A stretch of DNA of 64,000 nt from Eledone cirrhosa. Lineage: Eukaryota. Positions 20,809 to 53,915 of this stretch are shown here, in pieces. The notes below the pieces were generated by a model that was given only the letters and a program-made list of their open reading frames with translations, ran no database searches and had not been told where the DNA came from. Location of the stretch: assembly GCA_964016885.1 (NCBI GenBank), contig OZ024740.1, positions 93,496,001-93,560,000 of the forward strand, read 5' to 3'. Every line of letters starts with the position of its first letter. Positions within the stretch are counted from its first letter, which is position 1. Position numbers and translations under genes: made by a program.

Positions 20809-20843
<35 letters not shown>

Positions 20844-21970: not shown

Positions 21971-22013
21971 ATTGTGTCTAATTTAGGCACAAGGCCAGCA
22001 ATTACCCAGTAAA

Positions 22014-27933: not shown

Positions 27934-27964
<31 letters not shown>

Positions 27965-31900: not shown

Positions 31901-34181
31901 CGTAGAGGAGGGATGGTTTTTCCATCCCTTTTCACTTGATCGTCTGGTGAAGGGACCGTTGAATCGTCCCTTCAGCTGGTTGTCGGCGCTTCTATGAGTA
32001 TGTCCGAATATACTCTTCGTTTGAGTGTCCCTCCTAGGTCTCTGAAATCACCAACTGCGTTGGGGAATTTCGTTTTAATGTTTGTGTATTGTTTCTGTGC
32101 TACTTTTAGCAGTCTTATGTTAGTTGGCGTTTTGATTGGTGCTGGTATTATGTAGTCGTGTTGTGAAATGTCTGTGTGTTCAATTATGTAAGTCATTAGT
32201 TTCTTGTTGTGTGCATTTGTTTTTCTGGGGGTGTGGTGTGCTTCTACTATTTTCTTGTCGCTGTTGCTGGGTGTGTGTGTTTTGTTGTTGTGTTTGCGAT
32301 GTTGGTGCTTGTGGTGGTGGTGTTGAAGGTGTTGTTGTTGTTGGCGGTGGTGATGGTGGTGCTAGTGTGGGTGGTGATGGTGTTGGTGGTGTTGCTGCTG
32401 TGAGTCTCTTTGCAGTAGCCTTTACCCTTTTTTCATTACTTTCCTTCCTTTTCAAAGGCGACGACGCGCTGCTTCTGCGTTTGTGCCTTACGATCTTTTG
32501 CCATCACTCTCCCACCTCACACTCCATGTCTGATTCTGTGAGGTCGGGGAGGGGTACCAGCCCCACTCTTTCACTTGTTGTTGTTGGTGATATTTGCACT
32601 GGAGTCTCTGTTGCAGCTGCATTTGGTATTGCTGTTGTTGTTGTTAATACTTCCACTGCTGCTGCTATTTTTGATTTCCGTGGCGTGGGTATGGGTACCA
32701 CGGACCTATCGTTCCTGGTTGCCGCTTGTCCTGTTGCTGGTAGCCGTGGAGCCGGTTTCGGAAGGAGAGGGGGGGTTCTCCTTTCTCAGGGTATTCTCGT
32801 TGCAGAAGGCACTGAGGTGAGTCTTCGATCCACAGCGAAAGCATTTCGGGCGTTTACCCTCAACACTTATGGTCAGTTGATTGCCGTTATCGAAGTCTAT
32901 CACATCCGGGATAGCTTCGATGCACTCCTGGTTGATTTGGATTAACATCTCAATGGAGGTGCGGACCCAATCTTCTCATACTTTTTTCTGTACTTGCAGT
33001 ACAGTTGTTTTGTCCTCGATTCCGACGAAGACAGACGCGGCCAGCCAAGAAGGGGCCATCCCGGGGGGGGGGGGGCGTGGGTCAGTTTTGCCCTCACAAT
33101 TTTTTACCCGCAGTAGGACGGCACCAACACCATTTCCTCGCTCCTTAGGGTCACTACGGATTGAGCCTTTGCCTCCTGGGGTGTGGCAAAAAGTACGTCT
33201 ACGGTGGCATATTTCTTGCCTCGGGTGTTGTGCGTTTTCCGCTGCCACACAGTCCCCAAGGCTTTTTGTATTTGAGCCTCTGTGGCTCTTTCAACCCTAT
33301 GGGATTTTGTACTTACTGTACGGTACGTGACCGTACACTGCTGTTGGGTTTCGAAAAATGTTTCCGCTGCTTTGCAGATTGTTCGGTGTCCAGATTTTGT
33401 CACCATCTTCTTCGCTTCCTCTAATTCCTCATTTGTTATGAAGATGGTTTCCAGGTTGTTTGCGATACCTGCAAACAAGATTTGTTTTTCTTTGCTGCTG
33501 TTGTTGTTGTTGTTGTCGTCAGAGCTGCTGTTACTGTTGTTGTTGCTGCAGGTACTACGACTACTGCCGCCGCCGCTGTTGCTGTGGTTGTTGTTGTTGT
33601 TGCTGCTGCCGCTGTTGTTGTTGCTGATAATGATGTTGTTGTTTATGCTGCTGCTGATGCTGTTGCGGCTGTTACTGTTGTGTTCCTTGTCACTGTAGCT
33701 GCTGTTATTACGGCTGCTATTGCTAGTATTCCTGACGTCAGCCCAATGAAATGGGTTTTCGTATTTCTTGCACAACCTTTTCGTCGTTGCTCGCTTTGCA
33801 CGTGATTTTTCTTTTCTGGTGTCAGTTGCGAAAGAGAAGTGAGGGAGAGTGACACATTTAGAGAAGAGAGGGAGAGAGACAATCTTCTCTCTGCTGTAGT
33901 GACGGTTAAGGAAGAAGAAGACGGAATGAGTGGGAGTGACCTATGAAAATTATTTTTCGTAGCCAGGTTGTTTTTTTGTTTAAAATAAATATTGGGCACA
34001 AAAAACCAATAGGCGGTTATTTAACCACGAAGGGCCAAATAACGGGCAGAAAGACCCCTCTCACGAGGAGGAGGGTGTTTTTATCTACAAGTTGGTTAAA
34101 GTTTTAAACAAATTACAATTATTATAGCGGTCAAAATTTACAATACCTTACAGAGCCGAGCCTCCGTCAACCATAGCAGTC
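28929..34181 (-). mobile_element. Tx1/L1-clade LINE copy A3, reaches 5' end, two internal deletions
   Basis: Colinear with A1. Deletions near 30927 (RT) and 31195 (EN-RT linker). YADD present. 5'UTR nearly identical to A1. Confidence 0.95.
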
Positions 34182-34779
34182 AATAATAATAATAATAATA
34201 ATGTTTTCTTTATTAACCAGAAGGGTTTACATAAAGTAGACATTAAGGACAGTACAGGAAAATACAGGACGGTACAAATGGGCATTTCTGCGTGTAAAAA
34301 AACAGATGTAATAAAATAACAAAGAAATAGGGGGGGGGGGGAGACTTCCGAGGGACATTTGTGAAGAAAGCCCATTAAAAGACCACAGTGACCCTGACCA
34401 CCAGGGCAAGTACCCTCTCCCAGTTTTCCACCTTTAATTTACAGACACATACTCAGAGTAGGCCCATTCACTCGGGCCATACTTGCTTCTCTCACCCATC
34501 TTTCAACAAAATGCTGGGAAGAGAGCTCTTCCATCTCTACCCTGATTTTCCTTTTCAAATTAAATTTGAAAAAGTTAATCAGGGCATCACCGAAGCGGTA
34601 AGTGCTCGTCTTCAGCCCTTTCAAAGGTGTCCACCATACTATCTCTTTCGCAATGGCCACCAGACAGATAAAAACTGCCTGCCCTTCCCGGCTAAAAGAA
34701 GAGGGCGGGGCAATCCTAACGATGGACTCAAGATGATAGCCAGATCCGTCCTACACGCGACAGCAGGTGTTCGACATAA
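34182..34779 (-). mobile_element. Tx1-like A-family copy A4, 5'-truncated (~0.6 kb)
   Basis: Tail 34182-34202, A-type 3'UTR, last part of ORF2. Confidence 0.92.
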
Positions 34780-37700
34780 AGAGTGTTTAAATGTCGAACC
34801 TAAACAGTTCGAATAGCGGTGAAGTGGAGACTAGAATGTCATGTGACAGACTCTCACCCAGCAGGTGCTCCTTGGCTCGGCAGCAGGGAGCTCAACAGGG
34901 CTGTCAACCAAATACTGCTGGTGTCATAGGAAGAAGAAGAAGTAAAGGGACCAGAACCAACTGGACGAAAGAATTGAATAGAACTGTTATGCAATGTTAC
35001 CTGAAGAGTAACCCCAAGGAGAAAGGCTATACGAAACGGATGCATATCATATGGAACGAGATTGGTCTATTTAAATTAGATGAACAAAAATTGGCCGGGG
35101 AGGCTCGGGTAATAAGAACTAATGGGTGGATAAGCGAAATGGAACTGGAGGAACTGAGCAGAGAGATTAGCTTGGAAATGGAGAGTGGAGTATGGCAGGC
35201 AAACGAGCCAGTGGGAAATGAAGATCAGGAGGTTGAGAGAACGGAGGAACCATCCGAAGCAGACAATGATCTGAATGCTGAAATAAATAATTGTTTCTAC
35301 TTTAGGCACAAGGCCAGCAATAACCCAGTGCATTACTGGTACTTTATTTTATCGACCCCGTAAGGATGAAAGGCAAAGTCAACCTCGGCGGGATTTGAAC
35401 TCAGATCGTAAAGGGACGTAACTATGCTGGAAAGGATGGCGTCCGACCCTCTACCGATACTACCAATCTGGAACAAAGATACGGCCATTGAGGAGATGAA
35501 TGGTGACAGGCTAGGACTAGATTTGTTTGATATCCTAAACTTAGTGGTAGATGAATTGAACAATGATAGTGGGAAACCTATGAAGCTAAGATTTGTAGAC
35601 AGAAAAAAGTAAAAAAAAACAATAGCTAAGGTAAACAAAGTCATCCCATACGTTGAGGCGAGGAGCCTTCACCAGTGCAACAATATCCTCAAAGCAACAG
35701 CAAATGCGGTGATGAAATTACTTGGTAGAAAAGCGAGAGGAAACAACGAACAAGACAGATCAGAGATTTGGTGGAAGAAATGACTGAATGGTCAAATCAG
35801 GGAAATTAGAAATGACATTGGAAAGCTTGAGTCCCTACTGAATAGGACACTAAAAAACAAAGACACTAAAAATAGACTGGAAATAAAGTACAAAACTAGG
35901 AGGAAAAAGCTAAATATTATCATAGAGGAACTGAAGCAACGCATTGTAGCAAAGAGTGCAGAAATTACGCGATACGAGAGCAGAGTCAGTCAGTATAGAC
36001 ATAACCGCATATTTGACAACAACCAGAAGATGCTATCTGGACATCTTGAGGGAAAGAAAGAGGCTTGATCCCTGAGGCGGAACAAACTAAAACATTCTGG
36101 AGCAGGATGTTAAACATAATGACCAGGCAGTGTGCATTGAGACAGTACTGAAGGAGATTAGTGAACAGGCACACCAACAAACTGATTTGAGTATCACAGT
36201 TGAAACTCTTAAGGGGCAGGCCTAAAAAATAACCAACTGGAAATCACCAGGCCCAGATGGTGTGCAGGGGTATTGGATTAAAAATATAACATCCCTCCAC
36301 CCGAAACTGACAATCATGTTCAATGATTGCTTGATTTCCGGTGAGGTACCAGAGTGGTTGACAAAAAGTACCACAGTTCTGGTAATGAAAGACCGAATCA
36401 AGGGTAATGATGTTACCAACTATAGACCTATCACATTTCTGTCGGTAATGTGGAAACTGTTGACAAGCATTATGTCTGAGGAAATCTACCATCACCTCCG
36501 CACAAACAACTTGTTACCGGACGAACAGAAAGGATGCCGAAAGAAATCCTGTGGTACAAAGGACCAGTTACTTATTGATGAGATGGTAATGAGGAATTGC
36601 AAGAGGAGACACACTGGTCTTGCCATGGGATGGATAGACTACAAAAAGGCATTTGACATGGTGCCTCATTCTTGGATCACCAAAAGACTATAGATCTTCA
36701 AGGTGGCAGATAACATCAGACAGTTGTTGGGCAAAAGTATGAAGTCCTGGAAAACAGAGTTAACATCAGCTGGATAATCCTTGGGAGGCGTGAAGATCAA
36801 GAGAGGTAACTTCCAGGGAGATAGTCTGTCCCCTCTGTTGTTAGTCCTTGCCGTGATGCCCCTGACAATTCTACTCCGAAAATGAGAGCAGAATATAAGT
36901 TGGGAAAGGGAGAGCTTACCATCAATCACATACTCTTCATGGACGATCTTAAGCTCTTCGGAAAGAGTGAGAAGGAGTTGGATGTGCTTGTTGACACTGT
37001 CCGTATTTTCAGCAATTATATATGTATGCAATTTGGTATTAGTAAGAGTGGAGTCCTTGTGAGGAAGATTGGTAAATTGAGCAGAAGCAACGGAATCCAG
37101 GTACCAACAGGTGAGATGATAAAGGAAATTGACACTGAAGAAGGATACAAGTATGTGGGTGTTCTGGAGGCAGATGACATCAAGAACAAAAAAATGAAGG
37201 AATTGATAAGATCTGAATACATTCGGAGAGTAAGGAGCGTATTAAAGTCACATCTGAACAGTAGGAATGCCATAAGTGCAGTAAATTCCCGAGCTCTGTC
37301 TATTATTAGGTACAGTGCGGGAATTCTGAAATGGAATGTTGCTGAACAAAAAGAAATGGATAGGAAGACAAGGAAGCTATTGACTATCTACAACATGTTC
37401 CACAAGAGGAGTGTTGTCGATAGATTCTACTTAAGGAGATCTGAAGATGGAAGAGGTCTTATCAGCATAGAGGACTGTGTTCAGATGGAGAAAAACAACC
37501 TACACAAATACGTGACTGAGAGTAAGGAATCAAGCCGAGAACTGTACTGAAGGAGAGGACAATAGACCAGGGGATGTCCAAGGAGAAAATAACAACAAGG
37601 AGAAAGAGCAGCCTTCAGGAAATATCCCTTCATAATACCTTCTTTGAGAAAATTGAATTCAGATATTCACAGACATGGAACTGGTTGAAAAGAAGAGACC

Positions 37701-38385
37701 TTAAAAAGGCTACAGAAGGAATGTTAATGGCTGCGCAAGAGCAGGCCCTCAAAACGAAGTGGTTGAAACACCATATTTACAAGGAGGAGGTTAGCCCACT
37801 GTGCAGGATCTGTGGAGAGATAGGAGACTGTGGCTCACATTGTATTCGAGTGTAAACACCTAGCCCAGACTCACTATAAGGGCTGGAGACATGATGTGAT
37901 GGGCAGGGTGATCCACTGGCACCTATGCAAAGTAAACAATTTATCACATTCTGAGAAGTGGTATGAGCATAAGCCAGAGTCGGTGATAGAAAAAGATTAG
38001 GTGAAGGTGCTGTGGGATTTTAGGATACGGATGGACAAGAAACTGGAACACACTATACTTGACCTGGTGGTTTTGGACAAAGAAAAAAGATCGTGCAATA
38101 GAAGGAGAGGGAGAAAATTAACCGATACCAGAACTTAAAGTGGGAGGGAGGTAAAAAGGATTTGGAACTGCTATGAAGTCAAAGTGGTCCCGGTTGTCAT
38201 AGGCGCACTAGGTACTATCTCAAAAAGTTTCCAGGGATGGTTAAAGAAATTTGGCCCCTTCACGCTTTTTGGAACCCTTCAAAAGGCGTGCTTGCCGGGA
38301 ACAGCAAGAACCCTCCGATACGTCCTGAATATCTGAGGCTGCAGGTAATGGCTTGATATTCATTTCGACAAACTTTCCAGTTAAC
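34780..38385 (+). mobile_element. Near full-length R4/Dong-clade non-LTR retrotransposon (single ORF RT-CCHC-RLE), disrupted
   Basis: WTKELNRTVMQCYLKSNPKEKGYTKRMH (N-terminus), NYRPITFL, EQKGCRK..GTKDQLLID, WIDYKKAFDMVPHSW, FQGDSLSPLL, NHILFMDDLKLF, GRGLISIED, TEGMLMAAQEQAL, CRICGE; several stops and frameshifts. Confidence 0.92.
35286..35468 (-). mobile_element. Near full-length SINE inserted in the R4/Dong ORF
   Basis: Closely matches 21726-21910. Confidence 0.92.
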
Positions 38386-38387
38386 TA

Positions 38388-38452
38388 GGCCAGCAATTAC
38401 ACAGTACATTACTGGTACATTATTTTATCGACCCCGTAAGGATGAAAGGCAA

Positions 38453-38456
<4 letters not shown>
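38388..38456 (-). mobile_element. SINE fragment at the R4/Dong 3'UTR
   Basis: GGCCAGCAATTAC..ACTGGTAC..TCGACCCCGTAAGGATGAAAGGCAAAGTT. Confidence 0.85.
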
Positions 38457-38490
<34 letters not shown>

Positions 38491-41400
38491 CTTTCTTTAT
38501 TAACCACAAGGGTGTACATAAAATAGACATTAACGACAGTACAGGACAATACAGGACGGTAAACATGGGCATTTCTGCGTGTAAAAAACATGAAACAGAG
38601 GATGAAATAATAGAACAATGATAACATTCCCCAATAGTGGGGAGACTTCCGAGGGACATTCGTTGTGAAAGCCCATTAAAAAGCCACAGTGACGCTGACC
38701 ACCAGGGCAAATGCCCTCTCCCAGTTTTCCACCTTTAATTTACAGACACATACTCAGAGTAGGCTTATTCACTCGGGCCATTCTTTCCTCTCTCACCCAT
38801 CTTTCAACAAAATGCTGGGAATAGAGCACTTCCCTTTCTACCCTGATTTTCCTTTTCCAATGAAATTTGAAAAAGTTAATCAGGGCATCACCGAAGAGGT
38901 AAGTGCTCGACTTTCGCCATGGCCACCAGGCAGATAAAAACTGCCTGCCCTTTCCGGCTAAAGGAAGAGGGCGGGGCAATCCTCACGATAGACTCAGCTA
39001 ATAGCTGGATGCGTCCTACACGCGACAGCATGTGTTCGACATAAGCCCACAAGTAAGCAATGCTCGGACACTGGACGAGTGCGTGCAGGATGGTTTCGTC
39101 GCCCTGCGCGCATTTCGGACATGCCCGGCTGACTGGACCTCCATGCCTGTAGAGTATATCCCGAACTGGCAAAGCTCATCGGTAGCACTGCCAGGTCGGG
39201 GATTTCTGGAATATGTCCATAGGCCACTGCCCGAAAGTTCTTCCGAAGAGATTGGCTAATTGATTTTCGTCGACGCCTAGAGTTTCCCAAAGTACGTCGT
39301 CGCTCTTCCCCTCCACTAATCCTCTATAGAACGCCAATGTGCAGTTTCCACCGATCACATTGCCCGATTGGTCGAGGGCTGTGAGCGCCTGAAGACATTC
39401 CAGTCTCCAAGCGCTCCCTCACTGTCCTCGCTTGACCCAGGACAGCAGTTCCGTGAAGGAGACGAGCTGAGCCAAGACATGTCTAGCAAACGGCGACCAC
39501 ACCTGAACACCGTCGAGGAAAAGGTGGAGATGTCGTAGCCTGAGCGCGTTGTCTGCGCATCATCAGCCACGGCATTCCCTGTCCTCCACGTAACGGGTGT
39601 TGACAGCAGATAGACCGCCTGACCATCGGAGCGCGTCCCTTCCACAAAAAGCGAAACAGCAAACGCTTCAGTGCAGTCAGGCGGGGCTTCGGACAAGGTA
39701 CGACGGTCAGGCGGTAGTATATGACGGACGTGATATACGTGTTAGCCACATCTGTTCGACCTTTCAGGGATAGCTTCCTCTCGGTCCATTTCTGGGTGTG
39801 AGAAGCCACCCTGCTCGTCACTTCGTCTCAGTTTTTTGTCCGTCTGGAGATACGGACCGAACCAGACACAGAGCAATTAACGGTCCGTCCGTCCAGCGCC
39901 CAACGACGCTGTTGGACGGCATGGAGCTGGCTCTCCAGGTGCCGAGCTGCAGGCCCACTGACTTTTCATGGTATATATTGCTCCTGTCACCGCTACGTAT
40001 TCTCATAGTGTAGTGCCGATCGCCTCGATGTGTTTGGCGTTCGACACCACTACTGTGACATCGTCCGCATATGCTGACACGGATCTTCCGCATCCTAGTT
40101 CCCCCTCCCCCTCAACGTTTCCTGTCTGTGCAGTAATGGCTCGAGAGTCAATAGGTACAAGAGGGACGAGAGGGGACATCCATGGCTGACCGAGCGCATG
40201 ATGTTGAACGGTTCCGAAAGGTGACTGTTCACTCTCACCACAGAGCAGATGTCGCTGTGCATGGCAGCGGTCCAGCCTCTGAAGACGGGCCCAAAGCCAG
40301 CATCCCTCAGGACTGCCGCTGGGTAACGATGGTCGACCCTATCGAAAGCTTTCGACTGATCTAAATTGATCAAGGAGCCACCCGTGCCAGGTTCCCTAGC
40401 CACCCTCTCTACGATGTATCGCATGAGGTCGAGGTTATCGTGGATTGATCTGTCGGGAACGACGCATGTCTGCGCCTCTACCACCAGACTACCATCGACA
40501 AGCGCCAACCTCTTTGCTAGCACCTTGGCCAAAATCTTGAACACTGTGTTTAGCAGAGTTATGGGCGTAAAATGATCTATGTTATCCCCCTTGTTCGGAT
40601 CCTTTCTCAGCAGCGCTACAGTTCCAAGGTTCACAGAGCTGGGAATTCTCCTGTTCTGTTGCCAGTTGCAGTAGACGTCCGCCAAGAGTCCTCCGAACAA
40701 GTCTGGCATCTGTACGTAAAGTTCATAGGGCAGACCATCCAAACCAGGCGATTTACCCGTTGTGCATCCAGTCATTACCTCCCCTACTTCAGCGGTTGCT
40801 ATCGGCTTTTCGCAACACTCCACCACAGTGGCCAAGTCCCGCGGCAGACCGTCGAGTTGACACTAAGGTCCATCCCTCGATCTTCTGCCCCCGAACAGCT
40901 GAGCGAAGTGTCGCTGAAAAGCTTCACACATTTGCCCGGGATCGAGTAGCATGTGCCCGTCGTGGTCCACCAAAGACCGGATCGTGGCTTTGTTGTCACG
41001 ATGCGACTCCGCCACTCGGGCCCATTGTACGGCTTTCGTCCCCTCGTGTCTGAGAGCACGCACCCTTGCTCTGACAACGCAGCCTTCGTGCTTTGCATTG
41101 AAGAATTGGTCAAGGGCCAATTTCGGCGCAAGTACGTCGGTCGCGATGCATTTGCTAAGCGCCTCGTCTAATTTTCTAACTATTTCTCCCTCTGCTCTAT
41201 TTTTCTCTATTGCTAAAGCCTTACTAAACCTAATTGACTCTATTCTAATTGCTCTTTTTAGAGCAAGCCACCACTTGCTGTTGACGATGGTCCCCGTCAA
41301 CGCCCTCTTAACTAGTTCGCTAATCCGGTCTCTGTAGACCTTTCGCGCTGGTAAGGATGCGTTTAGCTTCCTGTAGCCGGGTCCTCATGTATGAGGCCTA

Positions 41401-44400
41401 TCTAATTCAAGCACACAGATCACAAATTTGTGGTCCGTGTAGCTTACTATCTTATATTGTGGACAGCCTTTTCTAGACCTATCTATTTCGCTACAAAATA
41501 CTCTATCTAGATATGATCTGGATGACCCTACGTGATTTGTCCAAGTCCACATTGGCACATTCGGGATATACAATCGGTACCCGTCAGACAGTTCAAAACG
41601 CCTGAGCTGGTTGGTGAGGTTCATGCATCCTCCCCCCTATCCGCTAATCCCACACAGTCCCAGCGTGCATCTAAGATCCCGTTCCAGTCGCCCACTAAAG
41701 ATCGGGACGTTCCAAGAAAGGTCTCCAGATGCTGGAAGAAATCAGGCCGCCCTGCTCCTCTCGGGGCATAGACGGCCACTAGCCTGAAAGCTTGTCCCTC
41801 TCCGCTGGTTACGTCTAGCACCACCAACTTACCTTCTGGGTCCAGGAAGATGGCCCGTATGGCGAGATCCAAACCTCTCCGAAAAAGCAGAAACTTCACT
41901 CACGCCCCTGATCCCGGACGGCTGGGAGATGAGTACACAACGTAGCCGCCGAAGATCGGTGCGAAGGCCCGTGCTTCGGTACCGATTGTATTTCCCGAAT
42001 GTTTCGGAGATTCTGGTCTCGCTGATGGCCACTACATCTTTGTTTAGTGACCTGAGGTATTTGAGCAGGTGGCCCTGCTTCCATTATGACCCCAAGCCAC
42101 GCGCATTTATGCTGCCTATTCTGAGTGAGGTCATGTTGAAATGGAGTGGAAATGTTGGGAAAAGACCACTTACCTTACTTCACGTAGAGGATGGATGGTT
42201 TGTCCTTTCTTTTCACTGCTTGTGGCCTCCTCCGGAAGGATGTCCTTATTAATCCTCCTGGAGAGTGTTTGTCCGAAGTCTCCGATGTCTTTGGGGAACT
42301 TTTGTTTTAGTGTCGTGTAGGTTTTCAGTGTGAGGCGAGTGATTTGTATGTGTGGATGTGGTGTGGACATTTGGGTTGTTGTGTAGTCTATTTATGTCAT
42401 GCTGGTGTTGTGTTGCATGTAGTGTAATCATTGGTTGATGTTCAAATTTAATTGTTTCTACTTTAGGCACAAGGCCAGCAATTAACCAGTGTATTACTGG
42501 TACTTTATTTTATCGATCCCGTAAGGATGAAAGGCAAAGTTAACCTCGGTGGGATTTGAACTCAGAATAGCAAGGGCCGTAACTCTATGTGTCATAACAT
42601 GGCGTCCGACTCTCTACTAATACTGCCAATTCAAATTTAATGCTGTCTAGTGTGTATTGTTTTGGTGGTTTTGTTTTGTTTGCGTTTGTTGTGGGTTTGT
42701 TTATGTTACGCTTTTTGGTGACTTTTGTGGTGTTTGTATCGGTAGTGTTGGGGTTAATGATGGTGATGGTGTTGGTGTTTGTGGGGATGAGGTTGGTGAT
42801 GCTGGTGTGGATGGTGGCATATCTGTCCTAACTTTTTTGTTTGATAATTTATTTATTTCGCTTTGTATTTTGTTTTTGGAGGGGGAAGGAAGAGAATTTT
42901 TTTCTTTTTTGGTTTCATTTTTTCTTTTTTCCTGATACCGTTTCCCACTCTTCGTCGTCACAATCTATCTCCAGTTGTGATAGACCGGGGAGTGGAAAAT
43001 CCTCCACAGGCGTTGGTTTTGGTTGTGGCGTGGTGGATGGTGTACGCGCTGGTGCCAGTTCTGTTGCTGGGGTTTGTTGCTGTTACAGTTGCTTCTGTTG
43101 TTGCTGCTATAGCTGTTGTTTCCATTTCTGCTGCTGGTGGTGTTGATGGTTGAGGTCATGGGGTGGGTATGAGAGGTGGCCTCAACCTTTTAACCTGAGG
43201 GCAGAAAGCCCTTAGGTAGGTTGCTTAACCACAAACGACACACCTAGGCCTTCTGCCCTCGACGATTACGCTGAGGTGGCTGCCGTCACTGAGGTCTATA
43301 ACCTCGGGGATCTCCTCAATGCTTTTATGGTCTGCTTGGATCAGGTGCTCCATCCCAGATCCGGAGCAGTTCTCCTGCTTTTCTTTCGCTATTTTGATTA
43401 TCTTGGTGTTGGTCTCGATGCCGGCGAGGAAGGCACCATTAGCCAGGGATTTCGAGGGCCGGTGGCACGTGGGTCACCCTGATCTTCACCAGTCTCTGGC
43501 CACAATAGCTTAGGACGAGTGTGAAGTCGTCACTTCTTAATGGGGCCATGGAATGTTCTCTGGCCTCCTGTGGTTTTTCAAAGAACACGTCCACGGTTCC
43601 ATATTTCTGCCCACGTCTGATGTGGGTTTTTTCTGCCCACACATGCGATTTGGGACTCGGATGCCCGTTCCACTCGGCGCGATGTTATGTTAATTGTCCG
43701 ATAAGACTCGGTGCATAGGCGACGATGCTCCATTTTATTAGGTGTGTGTGTCTGTGGGGGGGGGGGGGGGGTGACCTTGTACCCATCTTTCTTTACCATT
43801 CTTTTGGCTTCTTCTAACTCCGCCTGAGTTATCTACCTGGATCGCTTCGCACGTTTTTGCTACTCTGGCAAAACTCAGGGTAGTTTTCTTAATTTCATTG
43901 TTGCTGTTGTTGTTATCGTTATGTTTGTTATTGTTAATTTTAGTTTCAGTTGTGGTGGTGGTGGCGTCAGTGGTGTTCGGTGTTGAAGAGTTCATTTTGC
44001 TTGAATTCATTTCGATATCACGAGTTAATTTATTTTTTTCTTTTGTTTCTGTTGTCGCTGTGGTGGTGGTGGCGGGGGTTGTCGCTTTGGTGGCGGTGGT
44101 GGGGTGGGGGTGGCGGCTTTAACACCTGCAGTCATTGGTAATGGCGGGAAATTTTAAATATTGAGTCAAATTTAAAATATTGCTACTGCTTATATATTTA
44201 GTGTTGGCAAACGTAGTAATATTTACAATGGTGGTGTCGGTGTGAGGTGTTAGTTTGTGAGGAAGGTGTGAATCTGAGTCCGCCATGATTTTTCAAAGAA
44301 CATTTTTTTTTTTGTTTGATGATTAAAAAAAGTTTAAATTTTGGGCCCAATGCCCCAATATTTTTGATTGTCCTTTTCAGAAATCAATGTGTGTGCACTT

Positions 44401-44506
44401 ATATACAGTTAACAATAACAATTTTCCATAAATGGCAATTTTAAACAACTGAAAATAACAAACATTTGCGGAGCTCACGATGATACGATTTACTACGTAG
44501 GTCGCC
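38457..44506 (-). mobile_element. Tx1/L1-clade LINE copy C: A-type ORF2/3'UTR with a divergent ORF1/5'UTR, decayed
   Basis: Tail 38457-38489; ORF2 relics ~42134->38740 closely match A1; ORF1 from ATG 44286 matches A1 only at protein level (RRVERASESQI, RGQKYGTVDVFF). Confidence 0.93.
42451..42630 (-). mobile_element. SINE inserted in ORF1 of copy C, with target-site duplication
   Basis: TTCAAATTTAA at 42441-42451 and 42630-42640. Confidence 0.92.
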
Positions 44507-44541
<35 letters not shown>

Positions 44542-44791
44542 TTTCATTTATTGGCCACAAGGGCCGACATATAGGGGACAACACAATAGACAGGGACAGT
44601 GGGGGTTTACATAGAGATCGAGTAAGTATAAATAACAAAAAACAAAATAACAATAAAAATACAACAATGAAAGTTCCCCAATAAGAGGGATCACCACCCA
44701 GGGTTGACTCAAGCACCCCACCAGTCCTGAGCCACCCGACGCTCCTAGGGCACCCGGGAAGGGCACCCCTCTCCTTCTCGAATTCACCAGC

Positions 44792-47700
44792 CTACAGGCG
44801 CATGATCAGAGTAGGCCCACTCACACGGGCCATTCTCGCCACATTCACCCACCTTTCAGTAAATGTACTGGGGGGCAGCACTTCTCTCTCCACCCTCACC
44901 TTCCTTTCCAAGTGAAACTTGAAGAAGTTGATGAGGGATTGGCCGAAGAGAAAAGTGTCTGTCTTCAGTCCTTTCAACCTGGTCCACCATGCAACCTCTT
45001 TCGCTACTGCCACCAGGCAGAGGAAAATTGCCTGCCCTTCCTGACCAAAAGAAGGCGGCGGGTCAATCTTCACTATGGACTCGGACGATAGCCGGATCCG
45101 TTCTACACGCGACAATAGCTGTTCGACATAACCCCACAAGTCAGCAATGCACGGACACTGGACGAGTGCGTGCAGAACGGTTTCGTCGCTCTGCGCGCAT
45201 CTCGGGCAGGTTCGTCTGACAGCACTTCCGTGCCTGTAGAGTTTATCCCGAACCGGCAGCGCCCCCCGGTAGCACTGCCAAGCGAGGGATTTCTGGAAGT
45301 TATCCATCGTCCCCGGCTCGAAAGTCCTCCGGAACATACTGGTCAGTTCTACTTCGTTGACGCCCAGAGCCTCTCCTAGTACGTCATCGCACTTGCCCTC
45401 CACTAATCCTCTATAGAAATCTTGAGTGGAAGTTCCACTGACCGCATTGCCCACCTTGCAGAGTGCAGTGAGCGCCTGGCAACATTCCAGATGCCAGTCG
45501 CCCAGTCTCGGTCTCTTCTTGACCCAGGACTGCAGCTCAGTCAAAGAGATGAGCTGCGGAAAGGCCCGTCTAACAAACGGCGACCACACCTGTTCACCGT
45601 TTAGGCAAAATATCTGGAGATGTCGCAGCCTCAGCGCATGTCTGCGCATCATTAGCCACGGCATGCCCAGCCCTCCACGAAGAGGGTGCTGGCAGCAGAT
45701 GGACCGCCTCACCAACGGGACCCGTCCCCTCCACAAAAATTTGAAAAGGAGCCGTTCCAAATTGGCGAGGCGTGGACGGGGGCAAGGCACGACGGTCAGG
45801 CGGTAGTAGATGACGGACGCGATGTACGCGTTCGCCACCTCCGCCCGCCCTTTCAGTGATAGCTTTCTCTCAGCCCATTTCTGGGTGAGGTTGGCTATCC
45901 TGCTCGTCACCTCGTCCCAATTCTTATCCACCTGGAGGTCTGGTCCGAACCAAACCCCGAGCAACTTTACCGGTCCGTCTGTCCAGCGCCCAACGACGCT
46001 GTTGGACGGCATGGACTTGCCTCTCCAGGTGCCGAGCTGCAAGCCCACCGACTTTTCCGGGTTAAGTTTTGCTCCCGTCAACCTTTCATATTCCTCCAAA
46101 TGGGTGCGGATCACCTCGACTTCCGAGGTGTCCGACACCATCACGGTGATGTCGTCCGCATAAGCGGACGCAGCCTTTCTACGTCCCGGTTCGAGCGGGA
46201 TGCCCTGCAACAACTCCAGCTTCCGCAGTAGAGGCTCAAGAGTCAATACGTACAGAAGTGAGGAGAGAGGGCACCCTTGACGGACCGATCGAGAGATCTG
46301 AAACGGTTCCGAGAGGTGGCCATTAACTTTGACCACCGAGCGGATGCCGCTGTACATTGCAGCGATCCAGCTTCTGAAGACGGGGCCGAAGCCAGCCGCC
46401 TCGAGGACAGCCTCCAAGTACCGATGGTCGACCCTATCGAATGCTTTCGATTGATCTAAATTGATCAGAGCCCCACCGAAGCCAGGTTTGCACCCAACCC
46501 TCTCTATGATGTATCGCATGAGGTGGAGGTTGTCGTGTATGGACCTGGTCGGGATTGCGCAAGTTTGCGCCTCCCCAACCAAATCTTTGACGACAAGCGC
46601 CAACCTTTTCGCTAACACCTTGGCCAAAATCTTAAACTCTGTGTTGAGCAGGGTTATGGGCCTGAAATTATCTAGTGTGTCCCTCTTGTTCTCGTCTTTC
46701 CTTATCAGCGTCACTACGCCACGGCTCACAGAACTGGGAATGCTCCCGTTCTGCTGCCAGTTGCAGTAGAGCGCTTCGAGGAGATCGGAGAACAAGTCTG
46801 GCATATTTACGTAAAGCTCGTAGGGCAGACCATCCAAACCGGGTGACTTGCGACTCGAGCAGCCGACAAGGGCGTCCTGAATTTCGGCTGATGTTATCGG
46901 CTCTTCGCAGCGCTCAGCGTCGGCCGTCGAGAGGCGTGGCAAGCCGTCGAGGTAGGGACTGAAGTCCGCCGCCGTGTCCGACTCACCCATCCTCCCGAAC
47001 AATCGAGCAAAGTGCTGGCGAAAGGCCTCACACATCTGCTTGGAATCGCTCAGTTCGTGTCCATCTCGATCCGTCAAAGACCGAATTGTGGTTTTATTTC
47101 CACGCTGCGTCTCTGCAAAGCGAGCCCATCGGGCAGCTTTGGTTCCCTCGTTCCTCAGAGCACGCGCCTTAGCTCTGACAATGCAACCTTCGTGTTTCGC
47201 ATTGAAGAAATGGTCTAGTGCCATTCTCGCCGCTAGCACGTCTGTTGCAATGCCACTACAAATAACCTCGTCTAACTTAGCTATCAGCCCCTCCTCCTTT
47301 CTATTTTTCTCTATTGCTACTTCTTTGCTAAATCCTATCGAGGTTGCTCTAATCTCTCTTTTGAGTGCCCCCCACCACCTGTTGTTGACAACCCCCCCTG
47401 TCAACTTTTGCTTAACTAAGTTGTTGACCCGGTCCCTGTAAGCTTTACGTGCCGGAAACGACATGTTTAGCTTCCAGTAGCTAGGTCCTAACCTACGTGT
47501 CTTATCTAGGTCGACCATACAGATCACAAGCTTGTGATCTGAATAGGCAACCGTTTTAAAATGTGGACATCCTACACTATTTCTATCTCTTTTCCTAATG
47601 AAAATCCTATCTATGTACGATCTAGATGACCCTATGCGATTGGTCCAGGTCCATACTGGCGCATTAGGGAAATCTAGTCGGTACCTGTCAGACAGTTGAA

Positions 47701-48211
47701 ACTGGCTGATCAGGTACTTGAGGCTTTTGCACCCCCCGCTCCTATCAGATACTCCCACACAATCCCAGCGTGCTTCTAAGATGCCATTCCAATCCCCTAT
47801 TAACAGTAAAGGGCGAGACGTAAGCAGAAAGTTTTCCAGGCGCCTAAAGAAGTCCGGCCGACCGGCCCCAGTAGGGGCGTAGACGGCCACCAGTCTAAAG
47901 GCACCACCTTCGCTATTGCTCACGTCCAGGACCACCAACTTTCCGTCAGGATCCCGGAAGATTGACCTTACCTCGAGATCCAGACATTTCCTAAACAGCA
48001 CAGCCACTCCACCTCCCATTCCCGGCCGACTGACAGATGCAAAGATCTGATAATCGTCGAAAATCGGCGCCAGTGCGCGTGTGTCGGAAATTCTGGTCTC
48101 GCTGATCGCAATTACATCCATTCCTAGTGACCTGAGGTCGTTGAGCAAGTGACCTTGCTTCCAGGGCGACCCCAGGCCACGAACATTTAAACTTCCTACT
48201 CTTATGGCCAT
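44792..48211 (-). CDS. ORF2 protein, 1139 aa: APE endonuclease + reverse transcriptase + C-terminal CCHC finger
   Basis: APE motifs SLNVRGL, ISETR, VYAPT, GDWN, SYIDRIF, SDHK; RT motifs KSPGLDGLPYE, FRPITLLNTEFKILAKVLAKRL, LDQSKAFDRVDH, VRQGCPLS, YADD; CPRC..ETVLHALVQC. Confidence 0.97.
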   Translation of the reverse strand: MAIRVGSLNVRGLGSPWKQGHLLNDLRSLGMDVIAISETRISDTRALAPIFDDYQIFASVSRPGMGGGVAVLFRKCLDLEVRSIFRDPDGKLVVLDVSNSEGGAFRLVAVYAPTGAGRPDFFRRLENFLLTSRPLLLIGDWNGILEARWDCVGVSDRSGGCKSLKYLISQFQLSDRYRLDFPNAPVWTWTNRIGSSRSYIDRIFIRKRDRNSVGCPHFKTVAYSDHKLVICMVDLDKTRRLGPSYWKLNMSFPARKAYRDRVNNLVKQKLTGGVVNNRWWGALKREIRATSIGFSKEVAIEKNRKEEGLIAKLDEVICSGIATDVLAARMALDHFFNAKHEGCIVRAKARALRNEGTKAARWARFAETQRGNKTTIRSLTDRDGHELSDSKQMCEAFRQHFARLFGRMGESDTAADFSPYLDGLPRLSTADAERCEEPITSAEIQDALVGCSSRKSPGLDGLPYELYVNMPDLFSDLLEALYCNWQQNGSIPSSVSRGVVTLIRKDENKRDTLDNFRPITLLNTEFKILAKVLAKRLALVVKDLVGEAQTCAIPTRSIHDNLHLMRYIIERVGCKPGFGGALINLDQSKAFDRVDHRYLEAVLEAAGFGPVFRSWIAAMYSGIRSVVKVNGHLSEPFQISRSVRQGCPLSSLLYVLTLEPLLRKLELLQGIPLEPGRRKAASAYADDITVMVSDTSEVEVIRTHLEEYERLTGAKLNPEKSVGLQLGTWRGKSMPSNSVVGRWTDGPVKLLGVWFGPDLQVDKNWDEVTSRIANLTQKWAERKLSLKGRAEVANAYIASVIYYRLTVVPCPRPRLANLERLLFKFLWRGRVPLVRRSICCQHPLRGGLGMPWLMMRRHALRLRHLQIFCLNGEQVWSPFVRRAFPQLISLTELQSWVKKRPRLGDWHLECCQALTALCKVGNAVSGTSTQDFYRGLVEGKCDDVLGEALGVNEVELTSMFRRTFEPGTMDNFQKSLAWQCYRGALPVRDKLYRHGSAVRRTCPRCAQSDETVLHALVQCPCIADLWGYVEQLLSRVERIRLSSESIVKIDPPPSFGQEGQAIFLCLVAVAKEVAWWTRLKGLKTDTFLFGQSLINFFKFHLERKVRVEREVLPPSTFTERWVNVARMARVSGPTLIMRL

Positions 48212-48240
48212 GCTGGCAGGATGAATGGGAGAGGAAAGGT

Positions 48241-50151
48241 TTACTTACCTTCCGGGGTCTTGTGAAGGTCGGGTGGTTCGACCTCCATGGTTTGTGGGGT
48301 TTCTTTTGGGAACCCCTTTAATAGTCTTGACGTGGGTTTTACGTTCGGGGTTCCCACATCCCGAGGAAAGCTCTTTCGAATTTCTTTGTATGAAGCGAGC
48401 GACATTCGCATCAGAAGCAAATTATCTGGTACGCGAAATGTGCTCGCTTCAAATGTTTCCCCGTCTTTTTCGATGTTTGTGCTTCGTGCTACATGGGCCA
48501 TCAATTCCTTGTTGGCCCTTCTGGCAAGCACGAAGTTTTTATAGTTTTGTTGCTCGGGTTTTATTTGTTCGTGTGATTGTGGTGGTGATAGCTTTGTTAG
48601 TGTTGTTTCTATTGTGTCTGCGTTTGTTGTGGGTGGGGTGTCTGTAGTTTCTGATGTTTGTGTGTCTATTTGTTCTTGTGTCTGTTTAGCTTGTTTGCGT
48701 TTGGGGGATTGTGGTGGTTGTGTTGGTGATGCTGTGGGGAAAATGTTTGTGTGGGTGGTGTGTGTATTTTTTTTTGTGGGGGTGTTTGTGCTTTGTGGAT
48801 TTCTTTTTTTTTTGTGTTTTGTTTTTTGTATTTTGGGGGACTTTGGTTTTCCCTCATCTTCACTGCTGGAGGATGAGGGGTCTGTGGCTGTGAGCGTGTT
48901 TGTGTCTGAGTGAGTGTTTATGTTCTTGTTCGTGTGTGTATTTTGGGGGGGAGGGGGAATGGGAGAGCTTTCCTCGTTTCCCCCCTGGGTGTGCAATTTT
49001 GGTGGTTCCATTGTTGACGGTGTTGCTGGTGGTCCTTGTCCCGGCGTCGCCAGCAGTGGAATCTTTCGACCCCTTGCGCTTTTCGGCAGTTGAGGGCAGA
49101 AGGCTCGCAAGTGTGTCGTTTCCCCACAAAGGAAACAATGCGGCCTTTTGCCCTCAGTCATTATATGCAACACCCTCCCGTTTTGGAGGCGGATGTGGTC
49201 CGGGATTGTTTTTACGTTTTCGGGTCTGATTTGGAGCAGTATCTCCAGATCAACCCCGGACCAGTCGTCCCTGGCAGTTCTCGTTGCCTCTACCGGGACT
49301 GTATCCGTTCCTTCCACGATTACGCAACCCAGGAGCCACCACATATCAAGTCCTGGTGGAATCCTGGGAATGCGCACACGTGCTATTCGTTTTCCCATGT
49401 GGGAGGGGTACATTATGACCTTGCTGGTTTTGCAAGGGGTCATTGAATGCTTCACAGCGAGGGCTTCAGACTTGAACAGCACCGAAACGGTGCCGTATTG
49501 CCTGCCCCTCTCTATGAAGTCTGTGTCCTCTCTGATGTATTTCAGTGCGGCTTCTATGTCAGCTTGGGCGATTATCGCTGCCCTCTTTGTCTCTACTGAG
49601 ATGCATCTGAAATGCACCGTTCTTTTTTCCACTGCCTCAATGGCTTCTGCCGGGACAGTTAAGTTTGCCCAGGTCTGCTCTTGATTTATGATTTTCCAGG
49701 CCTGGGCCAACTTTTCCTCTCTGTTGGTTAAGTCGATGCTGTAGCATGGTCTCCTTTTAGCCGCTGCCACAGCAGCGAAAGTGTTCTTGTTGGTGTTGTC
49801 ACTGTTGTTGTTCTTGTTGGTGTTGCTGCTGCTATTGCTGTTGTTGTTCTCCCCTGTGTCGTGGTTACCTTCTGTGCTGTTGGCCTTGTTGGTGCTGCTG
49901 CTGTCGCTACTATTACTCTCTGTGCTGTTCGTTTTGTTGGTGCTCTCGCTATTACCACCTTCTGCGCTCTTCGGCTTGTTGGTGTTGGTGTTGTCGCTGT
50001 TACCACCTTCCGCGCCGCTCGGCCCGTTGGTGCTGGCACTGTCGCTGCTCACATTCGTGCTGGTGGCGCTCCTCGCCTCACCTCTCCTCTCAACGCTCAA
50101 GTCGCCGTTGCACGACAGCAGACCCGCCTCTAGGGGGCGTGGCTCCGCCAT
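48241..50151 (-). CDS. ORF1 protein, 636 aa: low-complexity N-terminus, RRM-like core, CCHC zinc knuckle, low-complexity C-terminus
   Basis: CFLCGETTHLRAFC (CX2CX4HX4C); RGRQYGTVSVLF RNP-like segment; lies upstream of ORF2. Confidence 0.92.
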   Translation of the reverse strand: MAEPRPLEAGLLSCNGDLSVERRGEARSATSTNVSSDSASTNGPSGAEGGNSDNTNTNKPKSAEGGNSESTNKTNSTESNSSDSSSTNKANSTEGNHDTGENNNSNSSSNTNKNNNSDNTNKNTFAAVAAAKRRPCYSIDLTNREEKLAQAWKIINQEQTWANLTVPAEAIEAVEKRTVHFRCISVETKRAAIIAQADIEAALKYIREDTDFIERGRQYGTVSVLFKSEALAVKHSMTPCKTSKVIMYPSHMGKRIARVRIPRIPPGLDMWWLLGCVIVEGTDTVPVEATRTARDDWSGVDLEILLQIRPENVKTIPDHIRLQNGRVLHIMTEGKRPHCFLCGETTHLRAFCPQLPKSARGRKIPLLATPGQGPPATPSTMEPPKLHTQGGNEESSPIPPPPQNTHTNKNINTHSDTNTLTATDPSSSSSEDEGKPKSPKIQKTKHKKKRNPQSTNTPTKKNTHTTHTNIFPTASPTQPPQSPKRKQAKQTQEQIDTQTSETTDTPPTTNADTIETTLTKLSPPQSHEQIKPEQQNYKNFVLARRANKELMAHVARSTNIEKDGETFEASTFRVPDNLLLMRMSLASYKEIRKSFPRDVGTPNVKPTSRLLKGFPKETPQTMEVEPPDLHKTPEGK

Positions 50152-50197
50152 GTTTTTTTGAGAACAAAATTATTATTTTTTTTCAAAATAAAGTTCA

Positions 50198-50225
50198 AAT
50201 ATTTGGGCCAAAAGGCCCAAATATT
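50198..50225 (-). promoter_or_regulatory. Conserved 5'UTR hairpin upstream of ORF1
   Basis: AATATTTGGGCC-AAAA-GGCCCAAATATT is a perfect 12-bp inverted repeat; related stems occur in copies D, C and A1. Confidence 0.6.
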
Positions 50226-50382
50226 ATGAGTTATTCCTTCACAGGATACAAATTAATGTCTTATAATGCTTCAGCGGTACAAAAAATAAACAATTCTCTA
50301 CAATTAATCCTCAAAAATTGCTTACTCACGGAGCTTCAAAAAACGTACATCCACTTTCGTCAATAATAATAATAATAATAAT

Positions 50383-50463
50383 AATTGTTTCTACTTTAGG
50401 CACCAGGCCAGCAATTACCCAGTGCATTACTGGTACTTTATTTTATTGACCCCGTAAGGATGA
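50383..50463 (-). mobile_element. 5'-truncated SINE between two (AAT)n tracts
   Basis: SINE 3' end; AAT tracts at 50362-50385 and 50464-50496. Confidence 0.9.
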
Positions 50464-50497
<34 letters not shown>

Positions 50498-50893
50498 CTT
50501 TCTTTATTAACCACAAGCGTTTACATAAAGTAGACATTAAGGGCAGTACAGGACAATACAGGACGGTACAAATGGGCATTTCTGCGTGTAAAAAAAACAG
50601 AGGATGTAATAAAATAACAAAGAAAAATTCCCCAATAGGGGGGAGACTTCCGTGGGACATTTGTGGAGAAAACCCATTAAAAGACCACAGTGACCCTGAC
50701 CACCAGGGCAAGTGCCCTCTCCCAGTTTTCCACCTTTAATTTACAGACACATATTCAGAGTATTCACTCGGGCCATACTTGCCTCTCTCACCCATCTTTC
50801 AACAAAATGCTGGGAAGAGAGCACTTCCCTCTCTACCCTGATTTTCAATTTTCAAATGAAATTTGAAATTTGAAAAAGTTAATCAGGGCATCG
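50464..50893 (-). mobile_element. Tx1-like A-family copy A5, 5'-truncated (~0.4 kb)
   Basis: Tail plus A-type 3'UTR and ORF2 end. Confidence 0.9.
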
Positions 50894-50904
50894 CAATATC
50901 ATAA

Positions 50905-51003
50905 TACTTGTTTCTACTTTTGGCACAAGGCCAGCAATTATCCCAGCGCATAACTGGTAATTTATGTTATCGACCCCGTAAGGATGAAAGGGAAAGTTAA
51001 CCC
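50905..51003 (-). mobile_element. SINE 3' fragment
   Basis: TTGTTTCTACTTTTGGCACAAGGCCAGCAATT..GATGAAAGG. Confidence 0.85.
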
Positions 51004-51014
51004 ATGTGGTATAT

Positions 51015-53828
51015 TGATCACAACGGTTGACACAAAGTATAATATTAAGGCCAACACAGGACAATATAGGACGGTACAAATGGGCATTTCTGCAAGTAAA
51101 AAAAAACAGAGGATGTGACTAAAAAAAAAGAAACGATGAAAGATTCCTCAATAGGGGAGAGACTTCCGTTGGTCGCTCGTGGAGAAAGCCCACAAAAAAG
51201 CCACGGTTACCCTGACCGCTAGGGAAAGTGACCACTTCCAGTTTTCCTCCTACGTTGCTAAAAGCACACGGTCAGAGTAGGCCCACCCACACAGGGCATT
51301 TGTCCCTCTCTCTTCCTCATTTCAACAAACTTGCTGGAAGGCAGCACTTCACTCTCCATCCTGATTTTCCTTTTCAGATGAACCTGAAAAAGTTAATGAG
51401 GGCGTCATCAACCCTTTCAAACATGTCCAACATAGGATCTCTTTTACCATGGCATTTAGGCAGATACAACCTCCCTGCCCTTCCCAGCTAAAGGAAGGCG
51501 GCAGGGCAATTCTCACAATGGACTCAGTTGATAGCCGGATACGTTCTACACAGCAGGTGTTCGACATAAACAAACAAGTCAGCAATGCTCGGACACTGGA
51601 CGAGTGTGTGCATGACGATTTCATCGCACTACGCGCATCTCCGACAGTCAAGGCTGACGGTACTTCCCTTCTTGTAGAGTTTATTCTGAACTGGCAATGT
51701 TCCTGAGTAGCACTGCCAGGCCAGGGATTTCTGGAGGTGTACATGGGCCCCGACCCGAAAGTTCTCCAGAAGAATTTGACTAGCTGATGTTCGTCGACGC
51801 CCAGAGTCTTCCCCAGAACGTCGTCACACATTCGCTCCACTAACCCTCTATAGAACGCTAAGGTGGGGTTACCACTGATTGTATTTCCCGACTGGTTGAG
51901 GGTTGTAAGCGCTTGAAGACATTCCAGTCTCCAAGGGCTTCCACTCGGTCTTCGCAAGACACAGGCCTGCAGCTCTGTCAAGGAAACACGCGTCTAGCAA
52001 AGAGCGAGCACACCTGCCAAACGTCAATGATGAGGTGGAGATGCCGTAGCTTGAGCGCATGTCTGCGCATCATCAGCCACGTCATGTATAGCCCTCCGCG
52101 TAGCGTGTATTGACAGCAGATGCACCGTCTGACTATCGGAACAAATTCCTTACACAAAGGGAGAAAGAGCAAACGCTCATGCGCACTCACCGCGGTCAGG
52201 CGGTAGCAGATGTCGGACGCGATGTACTTGCTCGCCACCTCCACTCGACTTTCAGGGATAGATTCCTCTCGGCCCAATTCTCGGTGAGTGAGGCCACCCG
52301 GCTCGTCACATCGTCCCAGTGTCTGTCCGTTTAGAGGTCCGGACCGAACAAGACACCTAGCAATTTAACCGGTCCACCGGCCAGCGTCCGACTGCGCTGT
52401 TAGATAGCATGGACCTGTCTCTTCAGGTGCCGAGTTGCAGACCCAGCGACTTTTCCTGGTTGAACATTGCTCATGTCACCGACTCGTATTCTCATAGTGT
52501 GGTGCTGATCGCCTCGATGTGTTTGGCATTAACCACTACTACGGTGACTTTGTCTACATATTTTGACACTCGCATCCAGTTCACCCAGGTTCCCCACAAA
52601 GTCTCCAGTATGTTCAGTAATGGCTCAAGAGTCAATACGAACTACAGGGACGAGAGAGTACATCCTTGGCTGACCGACCGCATGATGTTGAACGGTTACG
52701 AAAGGTGACCGTTCACTCTCATCACAGAGCATATGTCTCTGTGCATAGCAGCAATCCAGCACCTGAAGACAGCCGCCCTCAGGACCGCCGACAGATAAGG
52801 ATGGTCAACGCAACTGAAAGCTTTCGACTAATCTAAATTGTTAAAAACCCACACGTGTCAGGTTGCCTAGCTACTCTCTCTAAAATGAGGTGGAGGTTGT
52901 CGTGGATGGATCTGTCTGGAATGGCGCATGTCTGTGCCTCACCCACCAGACTACCACCGACAAGCGCCACCCTTTCTGCTAGCACCTCAGCCAAAATCTT
53001 GAACTCTGTGTTTAGCAGAGTTATGGGCCTGAAATGATTCCCCCTGTTCGGATCCTTTCTCAACAGCGCCACGCTTCTAGGCTCACATAGCTGGGAATTA
53101 TCCCGTTCTGCTTCCAGTTGCAGTAGATGTCCGCTAGGAGGTCTCTGAACATGTCTAGCATATGTACGTAAAGTTCCTAGGGTAGACCATCCAAACCAGG
53201 TGATTTACACATTGTACAGCCAGACCGTCGAGGTAGGCACTAAAGTCCATCCCGTGATGCGGCCCGCCCTATCTCTGAACAGCTGAGCAAAATGCCACTG
53301 AAAAGCTTCACACATCTGCGTGTGATCGAGTACCATGCGCCCGTCGTGGTCTTCCAAAGACCGAATCGTGACTCTGTTGCCACGACGCGCCTCTGCCTCC
53401 CGGGCCCATTGACGGTTTCGTCCTATCGTATCTGAGAGCACGCACCCTAGCTCTGATAACGCAACCTTCGTACTCTGCGGTAAAAAAAATTGTTCGCGAG
53501 CCAATTTCGCAGCAAGCACGTCGGTTGCGATGCCTTTACTAAGCGTTTCGTCTAATTTGCTAATTAGATCTCCCTCTGCTCTAATTTTCCCTCTTACTAA
53601 GGCCTTACTAAACCTAATGGACTCTATTCTAATCGCACTTTTCAGGGTTAACCACTATTTGCTATTGACGATGGCCCCCGTTAACACCCACTTAACCAGT
53701 TCGCTAATCCGGTCTCTGTAAGCTTTGAGCGCTGTTAACGGCGCGTTTAGCTTCCAGTAGCCGGGTCCCTCTCTATGAAGCCTGTGTAATTCAACCACAC
53801 ATATCACACATTTCTGGTCCATCTAGTC
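51015..53828 (-). mobile_element. Older, more diverged 5'-truncated Tx1-like A-related copy E
   Basis: ORF2 relics (HFRPITLLNTEFKILAEVLAERVAL, WLMMRRHALKLRHL, WRLECLQALT); truncated in the late APE region; tail not preserved. Confidence 0.9.
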
Positions 53829-53845
53829 ACCTCCCTATATACATA

Positions 53846-53915
53846 TAATTGTTTCTACTTTAGGCACAAGGCCAGCAATTACCTAGTGCATTACTGGTAC
53901 TTTATTTTATCGACT
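53846..53915 (-). mobile_element. SINE 3' fragment
   Basis: AATTGTTTCTACTTTAGGCACAAGGCCAGC. Confidence 0.88.

Follow-up and report, generated by a model that had tools for sequence, protein, structure and literature searches.

The element analysed here is a long interspersed nuclear element (LINE) on the minus strand of a 64,000-nucleotide stretch of Eledone cirrhosa DNA (GenBank assembly GCA_964016885.1, contig OZ024740.1, positions 93,496,001 to 93,560,000), which we call the window and from whose first letter all positions are counted (Table 1). It is an intact member of the L1/Tx1 group and probably the youngest such copy in the window. The reading that we favour, with moderate confidence, is that of a recently inserted, complete and autonomous Tx1-like LINE of the L1 group, from an octopod lineage that prefers (ATT)n microsatellites as its target and enters them in a fixed orientation. 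This reading is carried by the uninterrupted coding capacity of the copy amid decayed relatives, the codon-position pattern of its private changes and the 5' junctions of the related copies around it.

Architecture and class of the element

As the initial annotation had claimed, both open reading frames (ORFs) read through from ATG to stop and the untranslated regions (UTRs) are complete, the 5' UTR being alignable to the 5' ends of the other full-length copies (n=4). The decay of the relatives is likewise borne out: private frameshifting indels number 0 in the intact copy vs 6-18 in each of the five relatives that are alignable over most of ORF2. The expected catalytic motifs were also recovered in the ORF2 protein, which has the layout of the L1 group: an N-terminal apurinic/apyrimidinic-type endonuclease (APE), a reverse transcriptase (RT) with the QG and YADD motifs, and a C-terminal Cys-rich finger, with no match to RNase H in a Pfam search. 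The N, E, Y, D/N, D and D/H residues of the APE align with those of human L1 ORF2p, in which they, like the RT motifs, have catalytic roles. By both sequence and fold, ORF2 and its endonuclease (EN) resemble L1 more closely than R1/TRAS or R2, albeit measured against few solved references: the best solved sequence match is human L1 ORF2p (E 1.8e-57; R2, 3.8e-22), and the EN model (predicted local distance difference test score, pLDDT, 91.3) has an L1 EN variant as its top match (Z 29.0, root-mean-square deviation 2.3, 227 aligned), as against Z 24.1 for TRAS1 and 23.2 for R1Bm.

The core of the ORF1 protein is modelled (pLDDT 92.2) as two RNA recognition motif (RRM)-like domains and a CCHC knuckle, with tandem-RRM proteins as structural matches (best E 3.5e-6, Z ~9). 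zf-CCHC is matched by 16 of the 95 members of the ORF1 alignment and Transposase_22 by none. An HMMER search with the core recovered 252 relatives, and a word search with ORF1 gave no match among 3878 candidates. In the accessible text of PMC5203782 such a type I ORF1 (RRM and CCHC) is tied to Tx1 in non-mammalian animals; plant L1s have it as well. Beside this Tx1-type feature, the N-terminal APE of ORF2 sets the element apart from Dong/R4. The named protein matches come from Argonauta hians (59-67%) and the cuttlefish Acanthosepion pharaonis (49%); a further ORF2 fragment, 68% identical and labelled as a protein of a Herbaspirillum metagenome-assembled genome, probably stems from host DNA that was binned with bacterial sequence. 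In a tree of 40 rows (45 chosen from 124 eligible, five of them too short), the six window copies and Argonauta form an octopod clade (100/98), whose sister clade includes the cuttlefish protein. Since no named reference element of Tx1 or L1 is part of this tree, the term 'Tx1-like' is drawn from architecture rather than from phylogeny, which weakens the assignment to Tx1 proper.

A splice-donor-like G/GTAAGT at the ORF1 stop is found in five of six copies, in two codon registers (in the copy designated B2 it is mutated), and it is shared by families with unalignable ORF1 ends; a pyrimidine-rich spacer follows it in the four such copies that have ORF2. This recurrence suggests a signal acting at the RNA level. 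An intron within the ORF1-ORF2 spacer was rejected, as it would have only ~36 nt and be out of frame (read by eye). A 5'-truncated, ORF1-only copy of family A (14021-14827, minus strand) stops exactly at the donor-like GTAAGT and continues into an ATT tail; this single case is possibly a half-LINE or an internally primed product.

Age of the copy

The initial annotation had counted the pure AAT tracts on both sides of the element among the signs of its youth. Perfect (AAT)11 and (AAT)8 tracts are indeed present; however, decayed copies are also flanked by pure tracts (13 units at 14828, 11 at 38457), and purity was hence rejected as an age marker. As the 5' tract belongs to a truncated short interspersed nuclear element (SINE) piece, whose tail it forms, the presence of AAT on both sides by itself proves little. 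CpG depletion was also uninformative, being 0.83-0.92 in all six copies.

The claim of a recent insertion is backed instead by the codon-position pattern of private changes, counted at sites where the other window copies agree, and by a simulation of ORF survival. The intact copy has 12/744, 25/688 and 45/515 private changes at codon positions 2, 1 and 3, respectively (Fisher p 3e-9 for position 2 vs 3), whereas its neighbours show flat ~3% at all positions in B1 and B2, 5-7% in copy C and 9-15% in A1 and D; copy C, with 41/762, differs from the intact copy at p 7e-5. As far as sequence can tell, this is the pattern of a lineage under purifying selection. In the simulation, both ORFs stay open with a probability of 0.038 if decay is 0.75% and each substitution brings 0.05 frameshifts, the ratio estimated from the window copies, and of 0.065 if decay is 1.5% and frameshifts are absent. 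Together these give an indirect bound on the post-insertion decay of ~0.7-1.6% or less (overall, five neighbours range from 3 to 10%), which corresponds to ~2-4 My or less at the Octopus bimaculoides rate quoted in the accessible part of PMC13282606. The same source defines a recently active transposable element (TE) by at most 2% divergence from the family consensus and at least 90% of its length; the copy here is full-length, and its bound of ~1.6% is an indirect one and not a distance from a consensus.

Several observations pull the other way. The difference from B1 alone at codon position 2 is not significant (p 0.086). The near-identical copies that the initial annotation had proposed as a check did not turn up: the window holds none, its nearest relative having 86% DNA identity over ORF2, and no protein match of at least 90% was found among 87 matches of 7998 scored candidates, or 96 of 8000, the best outside the window being 84%. 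Moreover, the copy has private changes at 19 of 555 conserved residues, some of them radical (such as G76C, S134P, C624R and G702R). These radical changes, the missing near-identical relative and the room that the age bound leaves for ~2-4 My at the published octopus rate speak for a copy that is structurally intact yet dead or silenced, and up to a few My old. We regard this as a serious possibility, though less likely than not; it touches activity only and is compatible with targeting. Against it stand 5.3 kb free of frameshift or stop, and a private amino-acid rate (15/508, 3.0%) that amounts to half the rate of the least decayed neighbours and falls inside the range of 0.5-26% spanned by the 13 database relatives listed; furthermore, octopus repeats are poorly sampled by the protein collection.

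Probable insertion into ATT tracts

All 11 related copies in the window lie on the minus strand. Seven of the 11 have their 5' end immediately behind 10-40 nt of ATT repeat; the full-length copies (5/5) read ATT/G, in the same phase, after tracts of 21-35 nt; as a background, 254 of the 63991 window positions follow 9 nt of that ATT phase. The corresponding binomial p of 1e-11 overstates the case, because the junctions are not independent. Insertion into (TTA)n/(ATT)n, as first proposed for the single element, thus has support inside the window from the 5' junctions across the array, and on this sequence pattern the lineage likely prefers ATT tracts as its insertion target. A target-site duplication is invisible within a pure repeat.

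Starting from the domains, junctions, orientation and relative ages seen in the window, and taking nicking, priming and RNA recognition from L1-group biology, the most likely route of insertion would be target-primed reverse transcription. Transcription would start from the 5' UTR; ORF1p, with its modelled RRM-like domains and CCHC knuckle, would coat the RNA; and ORF2p would bind the RNA 3' end, probably at a CUUGU-loop hairpin and the (AUU)n tail. As the junctions and the orientation suggest, the (AAT)n strand would then be nicked by the APE, and its free 3' end, paired with the (AUU)n tail, would prime the RT. A new copy would be flanked by ATT on both sides and add a tract, upon which later copies could stack head-to-tail; the intact copy would have inserted into a tract already lying between the SINE piece and copy C, which is older. 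The least certain step is that the endonuclease would add a real sequence preference beyond annealing.

That step is where a competing explanation, which we think rather unlikely, departs: a relaxed, L1-like EN would nick AT-rich DNA, and the need of the (AUU)n tail for a complementary primer would make ATT preferred, not required. The structure prediction that had been suggested for the specificity loops returned the L1-EN fold; the model does not predict specificity. The loop length equals that of the relaxed enzyme of human L1 (alignment without gap), a point in favour of this explanation, as is the lack of a long tract at four of the 11 LINE junctions, two having only 5-6 nt in ATT phase (SINE tails) and two no ATT (one boundary being uncertain). 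Two full-length SINE copies sharing the LINE's 3' end also lie at non-microsatellite sites, between duplications of ~12 and 15 bp (by eye) that begin ATTA or TTATT; these would favour an annealing-driven preference if the lineage of the intact LINE moves the SINEs, and the dispersed SINEs may instead be moved by another LINE. Annealing of the L1 poly(A) to its target is described in the part of PMC13708176 at hand. On the other side, 5/5 full-length copies start in one phase right after their tracts, and the hairpin loop of the EN has been kept in both family A and family B: it is identical in the intact copy and B2 despite a synonymous divergence (dS) of 0.75, and differs in relatives of 40% identity.

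The copies form an array whose members are mostly joined at AAT/ATT tracts, the 11th related copy lying apart at ~8120-10150. Its head-to-tail order could also stem from template jumping in single RT events, or from tail recombination or duplication, instead of repeated targeting. Template jumps would yield tail-to-5'-end joins such as those of the array, and 5'-truncated SINE pieces do follow LINE tails. Co-insertion or recent duplication would, however, give equal ages, whereas adjacent units differ in age (~1% beside 5%; 3% beside 9%) and belong to families only 75-86% identical; we accordingly consider such an origin very improbable. Around the intact copy, whose neighbours on either side look older, decay runs from the SINE at 50909 (5/74) through copy C (23/379), the family-B fragment f50 (12/369) and the SINE piece (2/74) to the intact copy itself, a series that fits repeated use of one tract, although the SINE figures are noisy and the age of the SINE piece rests on two changes. 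Since that piece (50386-50463) is 90% identical to the SINE at 50909-50987 vs 96-97% to two other copies, it is unlikely to be a long target-site duplication of the former.

Nor do we give much weight, perhaps marginally more than to template jumping, to passive build-up in a permissive or silencing region (of low recombination, or like a cluster of PIWI-interacting RNAs), with orientation fixed by selection. TE hotspots are reported for Octopus vulgaris (PMC13282606) and passive accumulation has been proposed for Waldo near CA repeats (PMC3812793), in each case in the portion available. Such build-up leaves the base-precise joins to ATT tracts unexplained, and the RLE-type LINEs (with a restriction-like endonuclease) of the same array lie on the opposite strand. 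Repeated targeting of ATT tracts thus remains the preferred reading, to be weighed against the fact that the window is one locus, noticed as an array, with interdependent junctions; a search for host contaminants in prokaryotic genome contigs yielded no outside loci with independent junctions.

Both RLE-type LINEs contain SINE insertions, and the one at ~20842-21957 has an AAT tract on each side; from their motifs we take the two to be R4/Dong-like. A 213-aa frame at 1047-1688 (minus strand) has Cys/His and PD..D motifs but no Pfam match, and presumably resembles the C-terminus of a HERO-type RLE LINE. Other tandem repeats comprise a pure (TTC)28 at 10361-10446 close to the 5' end of copy E, the oldest, a short TTC-type run adjoining the RLE fragment at 20842, and AAT/ATT tracts at 12074-12085 and 58377-58430 with no recognised element alongside, that is, unoccupied potential targets.

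Table 1. Positions of the intact element, its parts and neighbouring features in the window
Feature	Position	Strand	Description
Intact LINE	50361 (G) to 44540	minus	~5.8 kb; then (ATT)11 at 44539-44507
5' UTR	50152..50361	minus	210 nt, first base G
ORF1	48241..50151	minus	636 aa, ATG to stop without interruption
ORF1 parts	~49653-49147; 49137-49096	minus	RRM-like x2; CCHC knuckle; low-complexity N-terminus and C-terminal part
ORF1/ORF2 junction	48212..48249	minus	splice-donor-like G/GTAAGT at ORF1 stop, pyrimidine-rich spacer, then ORF2 ATG
ORF2	44792..48211	minus	1139 aa, ATG to stop without interruption
APE endonuclease	48211-47501	minus	Pfam Exo_endo_phos
RT core	46687-45953	minus	Pfam RVT_1
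zf-RVT	45292-45134	minus	Pfam
3' UTR	44540..44791	minus	252 nt, terminal 4-bp stem with CUUGU loop (44565-44553) and AATAAA
(ATT)11	44507..44539	minus	3' tail and right remnant of target; abuts 5' G of copy C
(ATT)8	50362..50385	minus	tail of upstream SINE piece; left remnant of presumed target
SINE piece	50386..50463	minus	5'-truncated, tRNA-type, between two ATT tracts
f50	50464..50898	minus	5'-truncated family-B LINE fragment with (ATT)11 tail
Copy C	38490..44506	minus	full-length, older, decayed (~5-6%); SINE inserted ~42449-42633
Array	13795..53914	minus	10 same-strand L1/Tx1-like copies (five full-length), SINE pieces, two plus-strand RLE-type LINEs
RLE-type LINEs	~20842-21957; 34781-38384	plus	decayed; RT, CCHC and PD..D..K-type motifs
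SINE copies	12749-12903; 21722-21915; 35288-35468; 42449-42633; 54573-54743		and 11 shorter matches
G/GTAAGT sites	48249-48243; 25577-25571; 18570-18564; 42174-42168; 14027-14021	minus	

UTR hairpins, the SINE and known systems

The SINE is abundant (16 BLAST matches in the window, ~190 nt). Rfam gave 0 matches at gathering scores, so that its tRNA origin rests on box-like motifs which we presume to be those of a tRNA. LINE families A and B and the SINE share a terminal 4-bp stem capped by a CUUGU loop. Both sides of the stem are changed in three of four pairs and 83% of 72 cells are paired, in 18 rows that represent ~3 lineages and with a structure picked by eye; the folding z-scores of the hairpin are unremarkable (0.26, -1.71, -0.61). 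The SINE and LINE 3' ends agree at 15/26 nt (p 0.003, offsets allowed), as against 10/26 nt for the RLE-type LINE. We consider the shared 3' hairpin a candidate basis for a SINE-LINE partnership. Such a link would matter because SINEs fill 11.6% of the O. vulgaris genome in the available text of PMC13282606; no partner LINE for an octopus SINE was found in the literature covered, to which Repbase, Dfam and subscription papers do not belong. A further hairpin of 11-12 bp in the 5' UTR (~50195-50229), ~45 nt before the ORF1 start, is near-perfect in the intact copy (z -5.66, 0/200 shuffles) and can be made out when all five full-length copies are aligned, its stems being altered in family B.

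A bolder synthesis, which we put forward as speculation, is that the octopod Tx1-like APE itself recognises (AAT)n, each insertion renewing the target so that arrays build up, that the microsatellite is shared in opposite orientation with Dong/R4-like RLE elements, and that the LINE is the partner of the SINE through the CUUGU hairpin. If true, the intact copy would supply a functional enzyme bearing on all these claims: (AAT)n recognition, the shared microsatellite and the SINE partnership.

A young intact copy by itself is ordinary. The portion of PMC13282606 that was available counts 80 L1-Tx1 families (56 Mb) in O. vulgaris, of which 13 have 421 recently active near-full-length insertions; these average ~5.4 kb and, like the element here, are young near-full-length copies, probably of the same group. 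Microsatellite-targeting Tx1 families are also known already, and it is the (ATT)n target that appears to be new: we found no ATT-targeting Tx1 within the same literature coverage, and the supplements of PMC4494074 may list more. The criterion used in the accessible text of that paper, the target in >20% of a family's flanks genome-wide, compares with 7/11 here in one ascertained locus. Should the junction pattern hold genome-wide, (ATT)n would join the APE-type microsatellite targets, and the copy would provide an intact enzyme with which endonuclease specificity and tail-primer annealing could be told apart; the available part of a 2013 review (PMC3812793) describes how microsatellites are targeted as not well understood. 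The value as a tool foreseen in the initial annotation is doubtful: the review describes TAA-type repeats as dispersed in mammalian genomes, so that there is more than one target site, and a microsatellite scattered in this way suits single-site gene insertion poorly.

The comparisons that follow likewise draw on the accessible portions of the papers cited. Among known systems, the Tx1-clade families Kibi at (TC)n, Koshi at (TTC)n and the crocodilian families at (TTCC)n/(TTTC)n (PMC4494074) are also L1-group APE LINEs inside a short tandem repeat; the element here differs in its (ATT)n target and mollusc host, and is likened to them by target type and not by tree. Human L1 (8sxt, 1vyb, 2v0r) shares the ORF2 layout, EN fold and EN loop length, whereas our element has a type I ORF1, a repeat tail in place of poly(A) and a candidate 3' hairpin. 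Dong (Dong-R4 in octopus annotations) targets the same TAA microsatellite and is listed among APE types in PMC3812793, in conflict with PMC4640811, in which R4 elements encode an RLE; our element differs in its N-terminal APE and in inserting on the ATT strand. In SART/TRAS, two families likewise share one repeat, the Bombyx telomeric one, in opposite orientations (PMC10088271) and build arrays; both of these are of the R1 clade and telomeric, whereas in the window an L1-group family and an RLE-type family meet at an AAT microsatellite.

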